Source of the DNA: a virus
Lineage: Duplodnaviria; Caudoviricetes
Reading direction: 5' to 3' (one strand)
IMG/VR virus record: IMGVR_UViG_3300031994_004484
DNA length: 64,000 nucleotides
The position numbers and the translations under genes were made by a program. Positions 12,279 through 33,418 of this stretch are shown here, piece after piece. How positions within the stretch are numbered: the first letter of the stretch is position 1; every line of letters begins with the position of its first letter. The notes under the pieces are model-generated. The model was given only the letters and a program-made list of their open reading frames with translations. It was not told the DNA's origin and did not search any database.

Positions 12279-12934
12279 TGACTACGGTATCTTCACATCC
12301 GGTTTCATACGATGAAGGGTATAACTTACGGTCAGACACCGCAGACCTTCAAAACGCTTTCACAGACAGCGATTCTGACACTTGTGCGTTGATGTATTTT
12401 GTGAACGGAAGCAACGCGGAATCTTATATTTATTTCAATTTTGCATTAAACATCCAATCGGATGCAATAATTGATTCTGTGGCTTGCACCGTAAAAGGAA
12501 AGTTAAGCAACACGGGCGGAACTACCGCACGCGAATTGCAGCTTTTCAGCGGCTCAACGGCTAAAGGCACGGCAACAAGCATAACATCAACAAGCTTGCA
12601 AACATTAACTTTGAATGCAGGTGCGTGGACGGCGGCAGAATTGAACAACGCAAAGTTGAGGTTTTATGCAAAACGAGGTACAAGCGCGACAACGACAAAC
12701 CGGCACTATGACATTTACGGCGCGACATTGACTGTTTCATATACTGTTCCGTCAACAGGCGACAAAATATACATAAAAGTCAACGGCACGTGGCAAGAAG
12801 CTGCTGATATAAAGGTCAAGGTTAATGGCACATGGCAATCAGTCAGCAAGGTGTACAAGAAAGAAAACGGCGCGTGGGAAGAGCAAGACAAGTCTGCGAT
12901 GTTCGATCCGAATGCGTTGTATATAAAAGGATAA
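12278..12934 (+). CDS. Fibre-tip/fibre-associated protein
   Basis: C-terminal KVNGTWQ repeats; start overlaps previous stop (TAATG). Confidence 0.6.
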   Translation: MTTVSSHPVSYDEGYNLRSDTADLQNAFTDSDSDTCALMYFVNGSNAESYIYFNFALNIQSDAIIDSVACTVKGKLSNTGGTTARELQLFSGSTAKGTATSITSTSLQTLTLNAGAWTAAELNNAKLRFYAKRGTSATTTNRHYDIYGATLTVSYTVPSTGDKIYIKVNGTWQEAADIKVKVNGTWQSVSKVYKKENGAWEEQDKSAMFDPNALYIKG

Positions 12935-13070
12935 TCAATAAAGACGACCGTGGTGGTTGTACAATAACAGCAATCAAAAAAATTCAATCTTGTTTGGGTA
13001 GTACGGTTGATGCTATAGTTAGTCTTAAAACATTGGCTTTATGGTAGACGGTTCAAGATGCTTAGTATAA

Positions 13071-15518
13071 CTATTCATTCTCAAAACCGGCATCCTGAAA
13101 CGATTTGTCTATAATATCAGTTATCGAACCTATTGCCACATCGTATTTTTTTGAAACCAAATCAATTCCTCTTGTATCAACATACAAAAACGACAATAAT
13201 TCGGAGGGTATTTCACCGTCTTCAATAAACTTGTCGTACATGTCAATGGACAATTTGTTATCTATAAAATCAATATAGCGGTTAACCTCGTCCTTTATAC
13301 CGTCCTGTTTAAGCACTTCCTGCCGTTTCAGGTAGTCTGCCTTTATTTCCTCCCAATTAAGGCCACATTCGTCAATATAAGGCGGCTTCTCGTCGATTGA
13401 CAACCAAAACCTTATCTCCTTGTCCTCGGGCATCATGACATCCTCAAGCTTGTCCTGATCGGATTCGTTCAACGGCTGTCCGTAAATCAGTTTACATTCC
13501 TCTTCTGTAAATTCCTTCCTTTGTGAAGGATTTGTTATGAGAATGTTGCTTACAACTTTTCCGTTTTCGTCAACACGCTCCCTGATACTCCTGTCGAAAC
13601 AAACGGTTAAATTCAATATCCTCTTGTTGAGCATATCGATGTATTTTTCAACATTATATTCAATATTCTCGTCACAAAAATGGTCTTCGTCGTCCTCAAT
13701 CAGGTTGTTCGGCACAAGTATACAGTTGAATATTAGTTCGTCACGCTCTTCGGCGTTTGGGTGCTGCATTTTGACATATTCCGAAAGGTTAACCAACTTC
13801 CCGTTTTCCTTGATATATTTTTTTATATCTTCATTTTTGGAATTTTCCTTGAATACCTTCCTTATTTTGTTCAATTCCCTGCTATATTCCTTTGTAACGT
13901 CAGTCTCGTTATTATCGGAAAACAGGTCGGATGTTTTTATATAGTATTTTGTCACACGCTGAACGTCTGCGTCACTTTTCTTTTTGCCCGTGTTGATATA
14001 GTATATGGTGTCACCCATGTTGACTTTCAAGCCTTCCTTTATGGCGAGTTCGTACCATGCCTGTCTTGCCTTCTTCGAGCCGGCAGCTGTGACTTCCTTG
14101 CACTTCTCCTTGTATTCGTCAAGCGATATCTTTATCTTGCCAACAGAAGCTATATCTTTTAATGGAATTTTGAAACTGTCGATTTTTTCGATGTAGTCGT
14201 AGTAGTATTCGATGAATTCCTTACCATGGCCATAAAGGAGCAACTTAAGCCCGTGCCGTATCATATTTGAAATATACCCGGGCATTGTCCTTGACTTGAT
14301 TGCGTTTCCGACACGTTTCAATTCACCATTATCAAGTAAATCGCTATATATCTTCCTGCGCATCAATAAGTTAGCAGGAATCGTGTCATCGATATCCAAA
14401 CCCATTTTATTCAATCCACCCGGTATTTCAGGAACCAAATAAGTGTCTTCGAACTCCTGAACATCAGCCCATACACCAACATAAGCTTTACCTACTTTAC
14501 CATTACGGCCTTTACCTGTGCAATAGTAAGGATGTTCTTCGGTGTAACGTAATTTATTGGCACATAAGAAGTTAACACCATCAGTATTATGCAAAACAAT
14601 CATGCCCAACGAATTGACAAATGTACCGTCACATGATATGTCATAAACATAATCATTTTCGCTTGCTGTACCAATGACATTTAAAACCTCACCGTTTCCG
14701 TAAGTTTCTTTTTCTTCTTTTGTTTTAATAGCAAATGTGATTAGATTATGGTTTTCGTCATTTAATTTCATTTCAAACGGAATACCCAATTCCTTCAATA
14801 TAAAGGATATTCCGGCCATAACAACTTTATTGGTTTGCGTTATTTCCGTGCATTCCTCAATTGAGTTAATTTCTTTCTTTGAGAATAGTGAGTGGCAGAA
14901 ACCGTTAATAAAGGATTTTTTTATATCTTTGTTTGAATTTAGTATAAGACTTGGTATTTTTTTCTCCCCATATGATGTGTAAAAATCAAGTTTACCAAAT
15001 CTTTTTTCAAGATTTTTCGGTATAATAAATTTACCGTTACATGCATTTACGCCGCAATACCACGCTAAATCAGATTCTATATCACTATTTGACACGGTAT
15101 ATTCAATATTCCCATCATACACAGCAATACTATCACCGATTGATAATTCGGAAGGTTTTATTTCCCTCATATCAGGTGAAAACAACGAATGGTCTTCTGT
15201 GCAGTCAACCAACCCTCTGTTTGTTACGACTCTTTTTAGCTTTTTATTGGTTTTATGTTTATAAACATAGCCAACATCACACCATCCGTTTTTTGAGAGA
15301 ACGGTGAAATCTTTTTCAGAGAAATCCCTCCATTGTTCATTTTCAAATTCTATAGCGGATGATTTGTCAAAAACATCACATATCGGTTTAATGTCAATAT
15401 GATTATTTTTTTTATATTTTACCAAAATAGGCATGTCATATGTCACACTGTCTCCGACGACAGGGAGGTATCTGTAGTCTTCCCCGAATATGGGTTCGTC
15501 TTCAAGAATTTTTGCCAT
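13071..15518 (-). CDS. polB: Family B DNA polymerase, C-terminal part (motif C and thumb), intein-containing
   Basis: YLPVVGD|intein|TDG reconstitutes GDTDG motif C; RKIYS...GELKRVG region follows. Confidence 0.9.
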   Translation of the reverse strand: MAKILEDEPIFGEDYRYLPVVGDSVTYDMPILVKYKKNNHIDIKPICDVFDKSSAIEFENEQWRDFSEKDFTVLSKNGWCDVGYVYKHKTNKKLKRVVTNRGLVDCTEDHSLFSPDMREIKPSELSIGDSIAVYDGNIEYTVSNSDIESDLAWYCGVNACNGKFIIPKNLEKRFGKLDFYTSYGEKKIPSLILNSNKDIKKSFINGFCHSLFSKKEINSIEECTEITQTNKVVMAGISFILKELGIPFEMKLNDENHNLITFAIKTKEEKETYGNGEVLNVIGTASENDYVYDISCDGTFVNSLGMIVLHNTDGVNFLCANKLRYTEEHPYYCTGKGRNGKVGKAYVGVWADVQEFEDTYLVPEIPGGLNKMGLDIDDTIPANLLMRRKIYSDLLDNGELKRVGNAIKSRTMPGYISNMIRHGLKLLLYGHGKEFIEYYYDYIEKIDSFKIPLKDIASVGKIKISLDEYKEKCKEVTAAGSKKARQAWYELAIKEGLKVNMGDTIYYINTGKKKSDADVQRVTKYYIKTSDLFSDNNETDVTKEYSRELNKIRKVFKENSKNEDIKKYIKENGKLVNLSEYVKMQHPNAEERDELIFNCILVPNNLIEDDEDHFCDENIEYNVEKYIDMLNKRILNLTVCFDRSIRERVDENGKVVSNILITNPSQRKEFTEEECKLIYGQPLNESDQDKLEDVMMPEDKEIRFWLSIDEKPPYIDECGLNWEEIKADYLKRQEVLKQDGIKDEVNRYIDFIDNKLSIDMYDKFIEDGEIPSELLSFLYVDTRGIDLVSKKYDVAIGSITDIIDKSFQDAGFENE
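14586..15449 (-). mobile_element. Intein (288 aa) inside PolB motif C with degenerate LAGLIDADG remnants
   Basis: Starts SVTYDMPILV; block B DCTEDHSLF; block F YVYDIS; ends VLHN followed by Thr. Confidence 0.92.
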
Positions 15519-16905
15519 AACTTTTAATTTTCATTAATAATTCTTTTTCATTTTCTATAATAGGATAAGGATATTCCTCTAATCCGACATTCGTATAATA
15601 TAATAACGGAAGATTATTCTCTTCGCATAATTTCATTTTGTTATTATCAAGATTTGTAACCTTTTTGAATTCCTCATCAGGGTCTAAAGACTTATGAAAC
15701 CTGTTTGGTCTGAAATGTTGTATTCCCTGACATTCTATTCCGATATTATAATCAGGTAGATAGAAATCCAAATGTTGTCTTCCTAACCATTCGGGGGAAT
15801 AGTGTGGTTCGTATCTTATACCGCTCTCTTTCAGGAAATCAGACAACCGTTCTTCCATCTTTGACTTTGGTGCACATTCAGGGCATCCTTCTCCTGAAAT
15901 ATGGTTTGTCGGAGTCATCATGAAATAACCGTGTTTATTGCATTTTATGCAAACCTTTGTTGAGATGTTTTTATAAACCAAAGATTCGTCATAAAGATAT
16001 CTGTCCCCGTGTACTTCCTTGAATTTATTTATTATTTCATCCCTTGACAATGTGCGGGAAACAGCCGATTCCTCAACGGAGCATTTCGGGCAACCTTCCC
16101 CTTTTATAAAATCATTCGGTAATATCCAATAATAGCCATGTTTTGGGCAACCAATTTCAACTTTTGTTTTGTTATTTTTATAATGGGCTTTATCAAAAAA
16201 TAATTCTTTTTCGGGATGGGAATTTTTTGCTTTTTCAATCCACTCCTCTTCCGAATATTGATATGTTTCGCTACATTTTGGACACCCGAAACCTCTTAAA
16301 TGGTTCTTTGATATCTGTTCAAAATCACCGTGTATCGGACATGTTATAGTAATCGGTTTGTCTTTTCCTTTATATTCACTCTTTTCATAAGAATATTTTC
16401 CTTTATGCACTTCCTTGGCTTCGGCTATCCATTCTTCAGTTGTTTTCTTAATTCTTGGTTTCAATGATACATGGCCTTTCGCACATTTAGGACAACCATA
16501 TTTTGATGCTATATGTGTAATAGCATTTATTGTAAACCTCCCATGATAAGGGCAAACCACATCAATATCATACTCCCAACCTTTGAAGGTGCCCTCAACA
16601 TATTGGAATTTCTCCCCGTGTTTTTTGTTAGCCTTGTCAATATAATCCAAAAATCTTTGATGTAACGTTTTTTGATGACAAACTTCATATCTGCAAACCG
16701 GACACCCACTTCCTTTCAAGTGATTGTCGGGCCGTTGCATAAAATGGCCGTGTTTCAGGCATACTATATCAACCGGGGTTTTGTTATTGGTATAATTAAC
16801 ATAATCATATATGTAATGCCCTTTGCCATGCACTTTTTCAGCTACACTTATAAAGCTTTCCTTCGTGTGGCGTTCTGTTTTCTTCCGTTTTTTTATATCA
16901 TCCAT
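15502..16905 (-). CDS. Free-standing homing-endonuclease-like gene: five CxxHG...CPxC zinc-ribbon (DUF723-like) repeats plus C-terminal PD-(D/E)xK/Vsr-like nuclease
   Basis: Repeats such as ITCPIHGDFEQ...GCPKC; HLDFYLPDYNIGIECQGIQHF; lies between the two polB halves. Confidence 0.85.
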   Translation of the reverse strand: MDDIKKRKKTERHTKESFISVAEKVHGKGHYIYDYVNYTNNKTPVDIVCLKHGHFMQRPDNHLKGSGCPVCRYEVCHQKTLHQRFLDYIDKANKKHGEKFQYVEGTFKGWEYDIDVVCPYHGRFTINAITHIASKYGCPKCAKGHVSLKPRIKKTTEEWIAEAKEVHKGKYSYEKSEYKGKDKPITITCPIHGDFEQISKNHLRGFGCPKCSETYQYSEEEWIEKAKNSHPEKELFFDKAHYKNNKTKVEIGCPKHGYYWILPNDFIKGEGCPKCSVEESAVSRTLSRDEIINKFKEVHGDRYLYDESLVYKNISTKVCIKCNKHGYFMMTPTNHISGEGCPECAPKSKMEERLSDFLKESGIRYEPHYSPEWLGRQHLDFYLPDYNIGIECQGIQHFRPNRFHKSLDPDEEFKKVTNLDNNKMKLCEENNLPLLYYTNVGLEEYPYPIIENEKELLMKIKSYGKNS

Positions 16906-18899
16906 TGCGGTTTCATTCTATGCAGGTTATTAAAATGATAGCATAACAGTCTGAATATCATACGGCCTATGCATGTCACTTTTTCAGCAGCCTTAAGGTC
17001 AGACCAATAGAAAATGTTCCTACAAGCTCCGAAACTTCCAAAATAACTGTTTCCTACGAGTTTTAATAACAGTTGACTCGAATCATTAAAGAGGTATTCG
17101 GCATAAAGTTCCTGCCATTTTATATATTCATCATTGTATTCCTTTGTTCCCGGTTTTAATTTAAGAAGTATGGTTTTTTCTTCTTCAGCAAGTTTACCAT
17201 ACTTCTTTTTAAGTCCTTTGAAATATTCCCTTTCAGTTAGAACATAATTAAGAAACATTGGAAGAGCATCTGTTATGTCAACTTCTGATTTTATATTCCA
17301 TGTTAGAATTATTGACGGATAAAGACTGTTCAGGTCATATTTGTAGACTTCCCGTTCATCAACGGTTACACTTTTATAACCGAACTCCTTCTCTTCCAAG
17401 TCACTTCCCAATGCAGTGGCTAACATGCCCGTTGTCATTGTTCTCGAAAGACCCCCTGTGAAACTCTTTGGTTGTATTGTTTTCGGTATTGCCAACGATT
17501 CCTGATAGCTCCATGCCAACATTATGTTCTTCCAAATAGCCGCCGTACCCATTGTGTAAATCTTGTCATATGATACTGGTAATATTCCGGCCAAGAAATA
17601 GCTTGTGTTATTGAATTTGTGTTCAACCCTGTCAGCTTCATAGAGGTCGTCCATAAGATAACGTTCAACTATATAGCGTCCGCTTACCAATTTGTAACCT
17701 TCCTCTACATAATTTCTTTTATATAAATGGAATTTTCCGTTTTCATCCAAACCCTTTTTGAAATCAATCGCACTTGTTTTGGAGGGGTCATATTCATACC
17801 AATCCCCGTCGCTTTCATTGAAGGCGTAACGTTCTGTTTCATCAGCCCCCACATCATTGATTATCCTGCCGGGTACATATACACGGTTTTCCTTGTTCAG
17901 CTTGCTGTACCTTGTAACATATTTCAAATCAGCACGCTCCATATTTGAGTCCTGTGCTTGGGACCTTCTGACGGCAAAAAGCGAGTCGGTGATATGAACA
18001 CCTTTCATTACGGTCGGGAAAAAATACTCAGTTTCACCACCCAATTTCAAGACAGAACGTTTGGTAAGCTTCCTGATACCCCCGTCTATTATCCCTTTGG
18101 TGAATTCAAGCATATCAATACCGAGAAGTTCCTGAAGCCTGACATCAATAAAATAAAAGTCAAAGTTCTCTATATTATGCCCTGTTATGACATCAGGGTC
18201 AATTTCCTTTATAGTATAGAAAAACTCCCTTATTGCTGAAATTTCGTTATTTCTCCTTTCCTCACCTTCACCTTCAACCTTTATGATTTTCTTATATCCC
18301 TTGTTTGTTGAACAACCTATCTGCGATATTGCATGCACTTTCGGGTCCAAACCTTCGGTTTCCAAGTCATACACAAACCTCAAAAGGTCATCGTAATCCT
18401 TATAACCTTTGAACTGTCTCCTACCCGTTAGTATCATGTATTGCTCAATAGGTTTTGACACCACATAGTTTTCCAAACCGTATTCCCTATGTTTCGGTTT
18501 TGGGTATATCGGCACATCACCTTTTTCAAAAAATTCCATGAATTTGTAGAACGACATTTTCCTGTTTGCGTAAAACAGTATCTTGTAACCGTCCCTCATG
18601 CGTTCTGGTTCGGTTCCGTCGTCCTTTGTGGTTCTCAACAATTTGCAGGATATCCCGTATTCGGCAAGCTTTGAGCGGACAAGTGTCCTGTTGCCGTTAT
18701 ACAGCCTTTGTGCGGCGTCTTTCTTGCACCAACAGAAAGGGTGGAAATCGTCTTTCATTATCTGCTTCTTCCCTTCCTCGTCCCGATAGTAGATGGTGAC
18801 TTCGTTGTCGTTGTAACCACACTCTATCTTTATTATGTGTTCCATCGGGTCGGTACCCTTGAGGAAATGTTCAATATCCTCTTTTGTGTATTTTCCCAT
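16893..18899 (-). CDS. polB: Family B DNA polymerase, N-terminal part (3'-5' exonuclease, motifs A and B)
   Basis: ExoI YDLETEG, ExoII GHNIENFDF, motif A YDLNSLYPS, motif B KLVGNSYFG. Confidence 0.92.
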   Translation of the reverse strand: MGKYTKEDIEHFLKGTDPMEHIIKIECGYNDNEVTIYYRDEEGKKQIMKDDFHPFCWCKKDAAQRLYNGNRTLVRSKLAEYGISCKLLRTTKDDGTEPERMRDGYKILFYANRKMSFYKFMEFFEKGDVPIYPKPKHREYGLENYVVSKPIEQYMILTGRRQFKGYKDYDDLLRFVYDLETEGLDPKVHAISQIGCSTNKGYKKIIKVEGEGEERRNNEISAIREFFYTIKEIDPDVITGHNIENFDFYFIDVRLQELLGIDMLEFTKGIIDGGIRKLTKRSVLKLGGETEYFFPTVMKGVHITDSLFAVRRSQAQDSNMERADLKYVTRYSKLNKENRVYVPGRIINDVGADETERYAFNESDGDWYEYDPSKTSAIDFKKGLDENGKFHLYKRNYVEEGYKLVSGRYIVERYLMDDLYEADRVEHKFNNTSYFLAGILPVSYDKIYTMGTAAIWKNIMLAWSYQESLAIPKTIQPKSFTGGLSRTMTTGMLATALGSDLEEKEFGYKSVTVDEREVYKYDLNSLYPSIILTWNIKSEVDITDALPMFLNYVLTEREYFKGLKKKYGKLAEEEKTILLKLKPGTKEYNDEYIKWQELYAEYLFNDSSQLLLKLVGNSYFGSFGACRNIFYWSDLKAAEKVTCIGRMIFRLLCYHFNNLHRMKPQWMI

Positions 18900-18971
18900 A
18901 AGTATTTGCCATTTAGTTTATTAACAACGGGTTGTTAGGTTTTTAATGACCGTCCTCCGTTCCTTCTTGCT

Positions 18972-18984
18972 GTAAATATACTAC
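18972..18984 (-). promoter_or_regulatory. Host-sigma-type (Bacteroidota TAnnTTTG-like) promoter motif GTAGTATATTTAC upstream of polB
   Basis: Same motif at 26326(-), 32301, 33395(-), 53480, 55491, 59126. Confidence 0.6.
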
Positions 18985-19008
18985 AAAACCAAAAACAAAA
19001 GATGGGGA

Positions 19009-19015
19009 TATTTAT
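19009..19015 (+). promoter_or_regulatory. Putative late promoter core TATTTAT (representative of 13 copies)
   Basis: Copies at 2981, 7972, 19009, 19877, 23943(-), 26352, 28201, 33377, 33979, 34413, 36314(-), 40748, 54147, each shortly upstream of a start codon. Confidence 0.65.
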
Positions 19016-19042
19016 TTTTTTGAAAAAAGATTCTGTAAAATT

Positions 19043-19798
19043 ATGGCTAAGAAAGTTATAAGGCTCACTGAGAGCGACATTATGGGCATTGTGAAAAATG
19101 TCATAAACGAAATGTATGAATGCACCAACGAGATTTCTGACGGTAAGTTAAATGAGGGTGGGTATTTTGATGATGAGGATGATGAAAACCTTGGTGATTT
19201 GTTGTCACAGTTTGATGATGAAATTGATGATGAGTATGTTCCTGATGAAGAAGAGATGAATGACGAATTCTCGGACGAACCTGAAGGTGATCCTGAAGAA
19301 CCCGGAAAACCCGAAGGCGAAGAAGAGGAGATTGACGACCTTTCCTCGTTTGAAGATTCTGACGAAGAAGGGAAAGAGGAAAAGGATTTGTACGCAAAAA
19401 GGTATGAAGGAAGTGCAGAGGACAGTTGGTATGTCGAGCCCCCGAAAGACGAACACAAATATGACGAAGACAACGAGTACACGGATGGTGATGTTGTATA
19501 TTACGAGAATATTCCTATAGAGAAGAAAGACGGGAGGTTCCATATGACCATTGAGGACGGTTTCAAGGGTGATAACGGTGACTGTCCGAGAATTGATGTT
19601 GTTGGTTCCCATATTGCTGACGTTAAAGGTGAATACGACCGTCTTTGGAACAAGTTCTATTACAAAGATCATTACAAATATGCCGACCAAATGGTCAACA
19701 GCGGAAAGGGTCAGATTCAGATTGACGACACAGAACCGCTCGGTCAGGGTACAAGAATGGGTGATTACACGGTTCTTGTTGACTTAGACAAGAAATAA
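19043..19798 (+). CDS. Acidic protein with RLTESD...VINE leader, putative internal head protein
   Basis: MAKKVIRLTESDIMGIVKNVINE; long D/E-rich tract; TATTTAT upstream. Confidence 0.55.
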   Translation: MAKKVIRLTESDIMGIVKNVINEMYECTNEISDGKLNEGGYFDDEDDENLGDLLSQFDDEIDDEYVPDEEEMNDEFSDEPEGDPEEPGKPEGEEEEIDDLSSFEDSDEEGKEEKDLYAKRYEGSAEDSWYVEPPKDEHKYDEDNEYTDGDVVYYENIPIEKKDGRFHMTIEDGFKGDNGDCPRIDVVGSHIADVKGEYDRLWNKFYYKDHYKYADQMVNSGKGQIQIDDTEPLGQGTRMGDYTVLVDLDKK

Positions 19799-32336: not shown

Positions 32337-32468
32337 ATGGAATATTTATATTTTTTAGAAAAGGCTGTAAAGAAACACGGGAAAAAGTATATATACCCAC
32401 ATTTTGATAAGACCGAAGAAAAGGAAAAGGTTAGGATAATATGCCCGGAACACGGTGAGTTTTCTTAA
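32337..32468 (+). pseudogene. 43-codon N-terminal remnant of a zinc-ribbon-repeat endonuclease gene (absent from ORF track)
   Basis: Translates MEYLYFLEKAVKKHGKKYIY...VRIICPEHGEFS*; promoter motif at 32301-32312. Confidence 0.8.
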
Positions 32469-33360
32469 AACGTTCAATCACTTCATCTTGAGTGAGTTTT
32501 TTCGGTTTCTTTTGTTTATTGTCTGTTTTAATATTTTCTTTTTTTATCTTTTTCCCCTCAATTGGATGATTTTTATTTTCCTTTTTCTTTTTCAAAAGTT
32601 CTTTTGTACATTTAGGACAACCATGACCATGTAGATGATTTAACGGGGTTTGTTTAAAGTCACCGTGCTTTGGGCATATTATTATAACCGGAGTATTATT
32701 ATTGACATATTCGACCTTTGAATAATTATATTTGTCACCATGCACGGTTTTAGCTTCTATGACAAAATCATCTGTGTTTTTCTTTTTCCTACCACCGCAT
32801 ATAGGGCATCCCTGCCCTTTGAGATGTTTTGTGGCACTTTGAAGGAATTCTCCGTGTTCGGGACAGATTATTCTCCATTTGTCGTTCATTTTTTTTCTCT
32901 CACACTTGGAATAATCATACCTGTCACCATGCACAAGACGGAATTTCTCAATTATTTCCCCCAATGAAAAATTCTGTCCGGCACATTTTGGGCATCCTTG
33001 TTTTTGGTTAACATGGTTGTTTATTGTCATCCAAAACTCCCCATGTTCAGGACATATTATACAGACAGGTTTGTTTGAATTTTCTATTTTGGCTTTTGAA
33101 TAATCATATTTTCCTTTATGGATTTTGTTTGCGCGTTCAACCCATTCTTCAGAATGAATACCCCTCCCTCTTTTTTTGTTCGCACACGAAGGACATTCGG
33201 AACCGCGTAAATGTGACGACGGTGTTTGCCAAAATTCGCCGTGTTCAGGACATATGACACATACCTTTGTTTTTGAATCGATATATTCCACTTTGGAATA
33301 TATGTATTTTTCACCATGCCTTTTTTTCGCCTTTTCTATAAAAGTTTCTTTATCGTACAT
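32431..33360 (-). pseudogene. Truncated zinc-ribbon-repeat (DUF723-like) endonuclease lacking a nuclease domain
   Basis: Four ICP(E/K)HG...CPxC repeats; fifth repeat breaks after FKKTH; no PD-(D/E)xK domain. Confidence 0.75.
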
Positions 33361-33418
33361 ATTTATTTTTTGAGACTATTTATTGTCAACAAAATAAATA
33401 TACTATTTTTTAGAATAT

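Follow-up and report, generated by a model that had tools for sequence, protein, structure and literature searches.

The polymerase locus

The window analyzed here is a stretch of 64,000 nucleotides from a virus of the Caudoviricetes (Duplodnaviria; IMG/VR record IMGVR_UViG_3300031994_004484). Between positions 13071 and 18899, its minus strand carries a family-B DNA polymerase gene (polB) that is divided into two cistrons, with a nuclease gene between them and an intein within the second cistron. The first open reading frame (ORF; 16893..18899) encodes an N-subunit of 668 amino acids, which matches PHROG 262 and the Pfam families PF03104 (8e-12) and PF00136 (5.5e-7). Besides the exonuclease domain it contains motifs A (DLNSLYPS) and B (KLVGNSYFG), and its last residues, ...HFNNLHRMKPQWMI, are followed by a stop codon. 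The second ORF (15502..16905) is a free-standing homing-endonuclease-like gene of 467 amino acids with matches to PHROG 559/681/9084, and the third (13071..15518) encodes the C-subunit, 815 amino acids with the intein included.

The start of the nuclease gene overlaps the stop of the N-subunit gene by 13 nucleotides (16893-16905; junction sequence ATGGATGATATAA), and its stop overlaps the start of the C-subunit gene by 17 nucleotides (15502-15518), as confirmed from the junction sequence. The three-ORF layout and both overlaps, as proposed in a first-pass annotation made from the sequence alone, agree with the ORF coordinates and the junction sequences. The C-subunit ORF opens with a leader and N-extein of 23 codons (MAKILEDEPIFGEDYRYLPVVGD; 15450..15518) that correspond to the strand leading into motif C. 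An intein of 288 amino acids (14586..15449; Pfam Intein_splicing) is located between GD and TDG of this motif, and is followed by a C-extein of 504 amino acids plus the stop (13071..14585), which provides the second half of motif C (TDGVNF), the remaining palm and the thumb. Motifs A and B are read in a different ORF from motif C, in keeping with the proposal that they reside on separate polypeptides. The position of the intein inside motif C also agrees with the view that it would have to be removed from the C-part.

The same three genes are found in L024 (JAEIGA010003791.1), an independent metagenome contig, at 88-90% nucleotide identity to the window. Because the arrangement is reproduced in this independent contig, it is real and not an artefact of assembly. 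A search of the phage GenBank collection gave no nucleotide match, and the best polymerases in it are only ~21% identical (Salinibacter phage).

The nuclease at the break

The N-terminal part of the nuclease (15874..16857, minus strand) contains five tandem Zn-ribbon repeats of ~65-70 amino acids, counted by reading the translation, that are of the treble-clef type (C..HG...GCP.C) and match DUF723, DUF4379 and CapR. The array is presumed to be the DNA-binding part of the protein. It takes the place of the NUMOD or helix-turn-helix (HTH) region of Vsr-like homing endonucleases, which was not found in the N-terminus. The C-terminal part (15505..15873, minus strand) is a Vsr-like (EDxHD-type) nuclease domain of 120 amino acids, assigned by alignment, AlphaFold2 (AF2) modeling and Foldseek.

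The domain retrieves 4678 cluster representatives at E<=1e-3. Their alignment displays conserved D36 (nearly invariant), E47, H53 and D76 (invariant) in the domain numbering, which would correspond to D51, the Glu at the F62 position, H69 and D97 of Vsr, following PMC2677866. The AF2 model of the domain has a pLDDT of 93.5, and a Foldseek search with it returns Vsr as the top match (1cw0, E 2.8e-4, TM 0.69; then 1vsr), followed by I-Bth0305I (3r3p). The latter is also the best PDB sequence match of the domain profile, although a weak one (E 0.26), and a direct sequence search of the PDB with the whole nuclease gave no match. The presence of a Vsr-like nuclease at the break is borne out by these structural matches, and by its predicted fold the domain groups with the homing endonucleases of the Vsr-like/EDxHD family (PMC2677866, PMC3239194). 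The gene is accordingly referred to below as a homing endonuclease gene (HEG); a homing activity and a target for it are presumed.

The orthologue in L024 occupies the same place and is 88% identical. Between the two, the ratio of nonsynonymous to synonymous substitution rates (dN/dS) is 0.11 and dS is 0.54, compared with a dS of 0.42-0.60 in the flanks. Since dS equals that of the flanks and dN/dS is 0.11, the nuclease has been inherited vertically and is still under selection.

The intein

The window intein was aligned with those of L024, L012 and L029. It keeps the splicing residues of a class 1 intein, namely the invariant S1, T84 and H87 (T..H of block B), H287 and N288, followed by Thr at position +1 (TDG), and scores 34 bits with PF14890, just below the cut-off of 35.8 bits. 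Splicing between VVGD and TDG would yield VVGDTDG, identical to the sequence of the intein-less relative L001. By contrast with the splicing residues of the other three inteins, which in the alignment are accompanied by LAGLIDADG motifs, those of the window intein flank a LAGLIDADG domain with a 67-amino-acid deletion. Its motifs read ...NACNGKF and ...GFCHSLF, with both acidic residues gone, and no match to PF14528 is obtained, whereas this family matches L012, L029 and the L024-type cluster P0129. From its sequence, the LAGLIDADG endonuclease of the window intein is judged to be dead.

The splicing parts of the window and L024 (L024:12451-13515) inteins are 67-88% identical, with a dS like that of the flanks. 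Overall, the two inteins are 52% identical, compared with 96-97% for the exteins, and in the central endonuclease domain dS (about 4) is at saturation. This suggests that the endonuclease module of the intein is decaying or being replaced rapidly. The presence of the intein also varies among close relatives: L001 has none, P0125, whose exteins are 97% identical to those of L001, has one, and P0126 has none, though P0126 appears to have the nuclease. The intein and the nuclease thus behave as independent elements.

Position of the break and allelic states of polB

The break was mapped by aligning an intact relative to the PolB of Thermococcus 9°N (1QHT), which places it past the palm helix that comes after motif B and ahead of the strand into YADTDG. 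Alignment to intact polB thus sustains the location between motifs B and C given in the first-pass annotation. Another claim of that annotation fared differently. The termini at the break had been described as short and new, but the window tail (…LHRMKPQWMI) and leader (MAKILEDE…YRYLPVVGD) are collinear with, and recognizably like, the long uninterrupted loop of the sister clade (…MSKQQPSYV…PIEMDETFNYEPIVGD; P0013, L028), and for this reason are not new inventions. The linker at this position is ~20 residues longer in the sister group (L028/P0013/P0104) than in other relatives. Nor is the break private to this genome; it is fixed across a clade, in which it outlasts loss of the nuclease.

Homologues of the N-part fall into three classes. 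Proteins of 666-668 amino acids share the same break, at 96, 79, 67 and 64% identity to the window; those of ~811-870 amino acids have the N-extein, as far as VGD, joined to the N-terminal fragment of a split intein; and those of ~1120-1157 amino acids are intact. Among homologues of the C-part, those of 526-536 amino acids have leaders ending in (D/E)Y.Y.PVVGD ahead of TDG, and those with an intein measure 815, 882 and 885 amino acids. Many others, of 520-550 amino acids, begin with a C-terminal intein fragment of ~30 amino acids.

The architectures of the retrieved loci, taken from tblastn maps, reveal a corresponding series of states. The gene is intact in L002, L004, L007, L008, L010 and others, and contains a cis-intein in L012 and L029. 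In L006, L009 and L022 a nuclease gene separates the two parts of a split intein; L028 and L005 have a split intein and no nuclease gene. The break between motifs B and C is empty in L001 and L025; the window and L024 have it together with both nuclease and intein. A tree built from the N-extein region groups the B/C-split sequences in a single clade with support 1.0, which lies among forms that are unbroken between B and C and has L028/P0013/P0104 as its sister group.

One member of the sister group, P0013 (958 amino acids), has a mosaic polB N-part: over residues 1-130 it shares ~99% identity with the window lineage (P0004), and beyond residue 130 it is L028-like (60-97%). The mosaic reflects either recombination within polB between lineages or an assembly chimera. 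As to genome size, the record of L001 (IMGVR_UViG_3300021255_000114) is jumbo-phage-sized, with 372,793 base pairs, direct terminal repeats and an estimated completeness of 100%, and contigs of 200-410 kb hold many of the polB relatives; the window phage is probably of similar size.

A polymerase encoded in two chains

Comparison of the window with L024 gives a dN/dS of 0.03 in the N-part and of 0.045 in the C-extein (dS ~0.4-0.6), which points to strong purifying selection on both halves. The C-extein is 78% identical to the C-subunit of L001. In the complete genome of L001, a 79% relative, PF00136 matches once, at the split gene, and PF00476 and PF07733 give no match, which leaves no further match to a polymerase of family A, B or C. 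Purifying selection, the sole polymerase match and retention of the split down to 64% identity together argue that the split polB works as a two-chain polymerase, and the two chains would assemble into a working enzyme.

Pseudogene decay or chimeric assembly is an extremely improbable account of the locus. Chimeras do occur among metagenome assemblies, and P0013 looks mosaic; however, the selection on both halves, the layout reproduced in independent contigs and the sole polymerase match in the complete relative all speak against it. Joining of the halves by an intron, trans-splicing, ribosomal bypass or a frameshift deserves consideration because the window halves share one reading frame and the L001 spacer of ~50 nucleotides is close in length to the bypass gap of T4 gene 60. 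The halves of L001, though, are in different frames, and an Rfam scan of 12500-19500 at E<=10 detected no group I or II intron family, the gap being entirely filled by the nuclease ORF; the claimed absence of an intron has thus withstood a search with intron models. Intein blocks were sought in the N-part tail and the C-part leader and none were found, so that no split-intein halves are present at the break, as had been claimed, and both segments are shorter than intein fragments would have to be. For RNA hairpins at the two junctions, and in L024, the z-scores are near 0. Covalent joining of the halves is very unlikely in view of these results. Ribosomal bypass over a spacer of ~50 nucleotides is, for its part, rejected on account of the 1.4-kb insert of the window, which has 28 stops in the frame of the N-part. 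Scanning for promoters and terminators gave counts no higher than in shuffled sequences, and a minus-strand terminator between the ORFs is absent.

A deletion scar and the order of events

The nuclease is polymorphic at one site of a conserved gene, being present in the window and L024 and replaced in L001 and L025 by a spacer of 52 nucleotides between the polB halves. In one frame, the L001 spacer reads MDEMNKY, with its first codon exactly where the nuclease would start; a different frame closes with QLIKDIKNG and a stop that overlaps the ATG of the C-part. P0246, a nuclease orthologue of 462 amino acids that is 50% identical to the window nuclease, begins with MDEINKY and ends with ELIKNIKNG. 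The spacer hence retains the first 7 and the last ~9 codons of the orthologous nuclease, and because both of its ends match the termini of P0246, the spacer in L001 and L025 is a deletion scar. P0246 lies on a single contig of 19,240 nucleotides. The same holds for P0126, a C-part of the L001 lineage that lacks an intein and starts with MGK, which fits an …AAT GGG TAA overlap with the end of the nuclease. The scar, together with a dS equal to that of the flanks, implies that the ancestor shared by the window and L001 already had the nuclease. On this sequence evidence, the nuclease-bearing state came first, and in L001 and L025 the split outlived the nuclease.

A second case is seen in L005. 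Its split-intein halves (L005:9150-9830) are separated by what remains, frame-shifted, of the final ~70 codons of an L006-type nuclease. This is an independent deletion scar, from a different HEG, that likewise left the gene split.

Proposed origin of the split

We consider it likely that the family-B replicative polymerase of this phage is made as two polypeptides following the insertion of a HEG, that the split has a single origin and is hard to undo, and that the intein is a separate matter. A Vsr-like free-standing HEG would have inserted into the DNA for a variable surface loop between the palm helix behind motif B and the beta-strand into motif C, giving rise to a stop, the ORF of the HEG and a new start. 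The three overlapping ORFs are probably co-transcribed and translationally coupled. The N-subunit would carry the exonuclease domain, motif A and motif B, and the C-subunit would be made as an intein precursor that, once spliced in cis, supplies motif C and the thumb; the two chains would then join non-covalently into one active site. The split would have arisen once, in the ancestor of the clade, and would not be easily reversed, since deletion of the HEG, as in L001 and L025, would leave the 52-nucleotide scar with the gene still in two pieces. The intein, at the classical motif-C site, would be another parasite, independent of the first.

Several points weigh against this interpretation. 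The L001 spacer has no similarity above that of shuffled sequences to the nuclease gene of the window itself; the scar matches only the L001-lineage orthologue P0246, whose position next to P0126 is deduced from the 19,240-nucleotide contig and the fitting codon overlap. The HEG as the cause of the break is traced back only to the common ancestor of the window and L001, short of the two deepest split lineages (P0006/P0132 and P0007/P0133). The long loop of the sister clade could itself be a re-fused scar, so that loop evolution may have run in either direction. Finally, we infer the association of the chains and the activity of the enzyme, rather than observe them.

The gene may alternatively have been split earlier for another reason, the HEG having settled later in the intercistronic gap. 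Free-standing HEGs favor intergenic sites, HEG-less split alleles exist (L001, L025), and the evidence of a HEG stops short of the deepest split lineages (P0006, P0007). The same doubt has been voiced for gp43 in phage 25 versus 44RR, for which a review leaves it undecided if the gene was in two pieces before the HEG arrived (PMC2988022). Such an order is nevertheless quite improbable here, as the HEG-less spacer is itself a HEG remnant, the dS of the HEG is the same as that of its flanks, and an orthologue at 50% identity fits co-divergence with polB at 79%. A further scenario, compatible with breakage by HEG insertion, is collaborative or trans homing, in which the HEG would cut the intein-less motif-C DNA of related phages and drag the adjacent intein along. 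HEG and intein would then constitute one composite mobile unit, and the intein would shield the resident genome from cleavage. The intein is located only 69 nucleotides from the HEG, its endonuclease motifs are destroyed in the window, and the same Zn-ribbon plus Vsr type of HEG is found inside the motif-C intein of L006, L009 and L022. The seg nuclease of phage 25 reportedly cuts intron-free 43B. This phage is among the cases behind the corresponding scenario for free-standing HEGs and endonuclease-less introns (PMC2988022). On the other hand, L024 combines the HEG with an intein whose LAGLIDADG motifs are intact, and P0246 with P0126 would represent a HEG-plus, intein-minus allele; because HEG and intein occur independently, the intein is not needed for self-protection. 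We regard collaborative homing as possible, albeit doubtful. It is likewise rather unlikely that the nuclease is more than a passenger and owes its purifying selection to a further role, be it as part of a composite trans-homing unit with the dead intein 69 nucleotides away or as a domesticated translation-coupling ORF. The former, if true, would be the intein counterpart of the collaborative homing of introns, and the latter, a role of the nuclease ORF in coupling translation of the two polymerase subunits, would amount to domestication.

Comparison with known split genes

The closest parallels to a HEG-split PolB are found among the T4-like phages, in the split gp43 of the Aeromonas phages 44RR2.8t and 25 (Petrov et al. 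2006, 2010; reviewed in PMC2988022). In 44RR2.8t, 43A (498 amino acids) and 43B (391 amino acids) are separated by a spacer of 49 nucleotides, and the break lies between motifs A and B. As for gp43 of 44RR and 25, the polymerase of the window is a family-B phage enzyme encoded in two adjacent cistrons with the aspartates of motif A and motif C on different chains, and the 52-nucleotide intercistronic spacer of L001 resembles that of 44RR. Split 43A/43B of T4-like phages co-purify and are active, and phage 25 has a free-standing HEG in the gap of its split polymerase gene (PMC2988022). In contrast to 44RR, the break described here lies between motifs B and C. The HEG of phage 25 is of the GIY-YIG seg type, as opposed to the Vsr-like type with Zn ribbons, and the element downstream of it is not an intein: 43B of phage 25 is said to carry a group I intron. 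Unlike the T4-like spacer, whose origin is unresolved, the spacer in L001 is a recognizable HEG scar; it thus bears on the order of events, which was left open for 43A/43B.

Vsr-like HEGs are known to sit between split-intein halves, and one intein-less SbcD-like gene has extra terminal residues (Dassa et al. 2009, PMC2677866). Like these fractured genes, the window has a free-standing Vsr-like nuclease between the halves of a phage DNA-metabolism gene, and its relatives L006, L009 and L022 have the canonical split-intein version at motif C. There is, however, no split intein at the window break, and a complete cis-intein lies 23 codons downstream. Extra residues at both termini of the break are shared with the SbcD-like case. 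The C-terminal Vsr-fold catalytic domain and N-terminal DNA-binding region are arranged as in I-Bth0305I (PMC3239194).

Fracture by a HEG is also known for nrdA of Aeh1, where mobE divides the gene and the products reassemble into active enzyme (Friedrich et al. 2007; Crona et al. 2011, PMC3045599). In both systems a HEG insertion makes two cistrons of an essential enzyme gene; the enzyme differs, the HEG of Aeh1 is of the HNH type, and its assembly peptides come from the mobile element, whereas the tail and leader found here match a loop of unsplit relatives. Archaeal family-B polymerases encoded in two pieces comprise the two-gene PolB of Methanothermobacter and the split-intein PolB of Nanoarchaeum (as cited in PMC2677866). 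The archaeal genes are unlinked and without a HEG, and Nanoarchaeum uses protein trans-splicing. The novelty claimed in the first-pass annotation for a two-chain, parasitized polymerase is overstated. The site of the break and the pairing of this HEG family with this host gene are new, and the self-splicing element is an intein instead of an intron; aspartate motifs on separate chains, a free-standing HEG in the break and, reportedly, a self-splicing element in the second cistron had been described for gp43 (PMC2988022), and Vsr-like HEGs that divide a gene lacking an intein had been described as well (PMC2677866).

A single polB family of large uncultured phages thus shows many allelic states. 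These include the intact gene, a long-loop form (seen here solely where a motif-C split intein breaks the gene as well), the cis-intein, the split intein with a HEG, without a HEG or with a HEG scar, and the intein-less break with a HEG or a scar. The scar provides sequence evidence for a ratchet, in which a selfish nuclease can break a gene essential for replication and its later loss does not undo the break. The allelic series offers natural material for the study of PolB active-site assembly from two chains, and the target of a Vsr-type nuclease with a Zn-ribbon array could be defined.

Paralogues of the nuclease

Queries of IMG/VR with the window nuclease and with P0246 returned no close orthologue. 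Paralogues are present as four open frames in the 373-kb relative and at 77 loci in IMG/VR. Within the window, a paralogue of the Zn-ribbon region is located at 32455-33387 (minus strand); it is 33-40% identical and has no detectable nuclease domain. The paralogous nucleases at L022:6334-8220, L006:9501-10790 and L001:12225-14126 have an extra C-terminal Mom-like/GNAT-like domain (PF25680, Acetyltransf), which follows the Zn ribbons and a DUF559/MTES_1575 nuclease domain. The nucleases with a Mom-like domain include those between the split-intein halves of polB in the relatives, and the fusion of a homing-type nuclease to such a domain is unusual.

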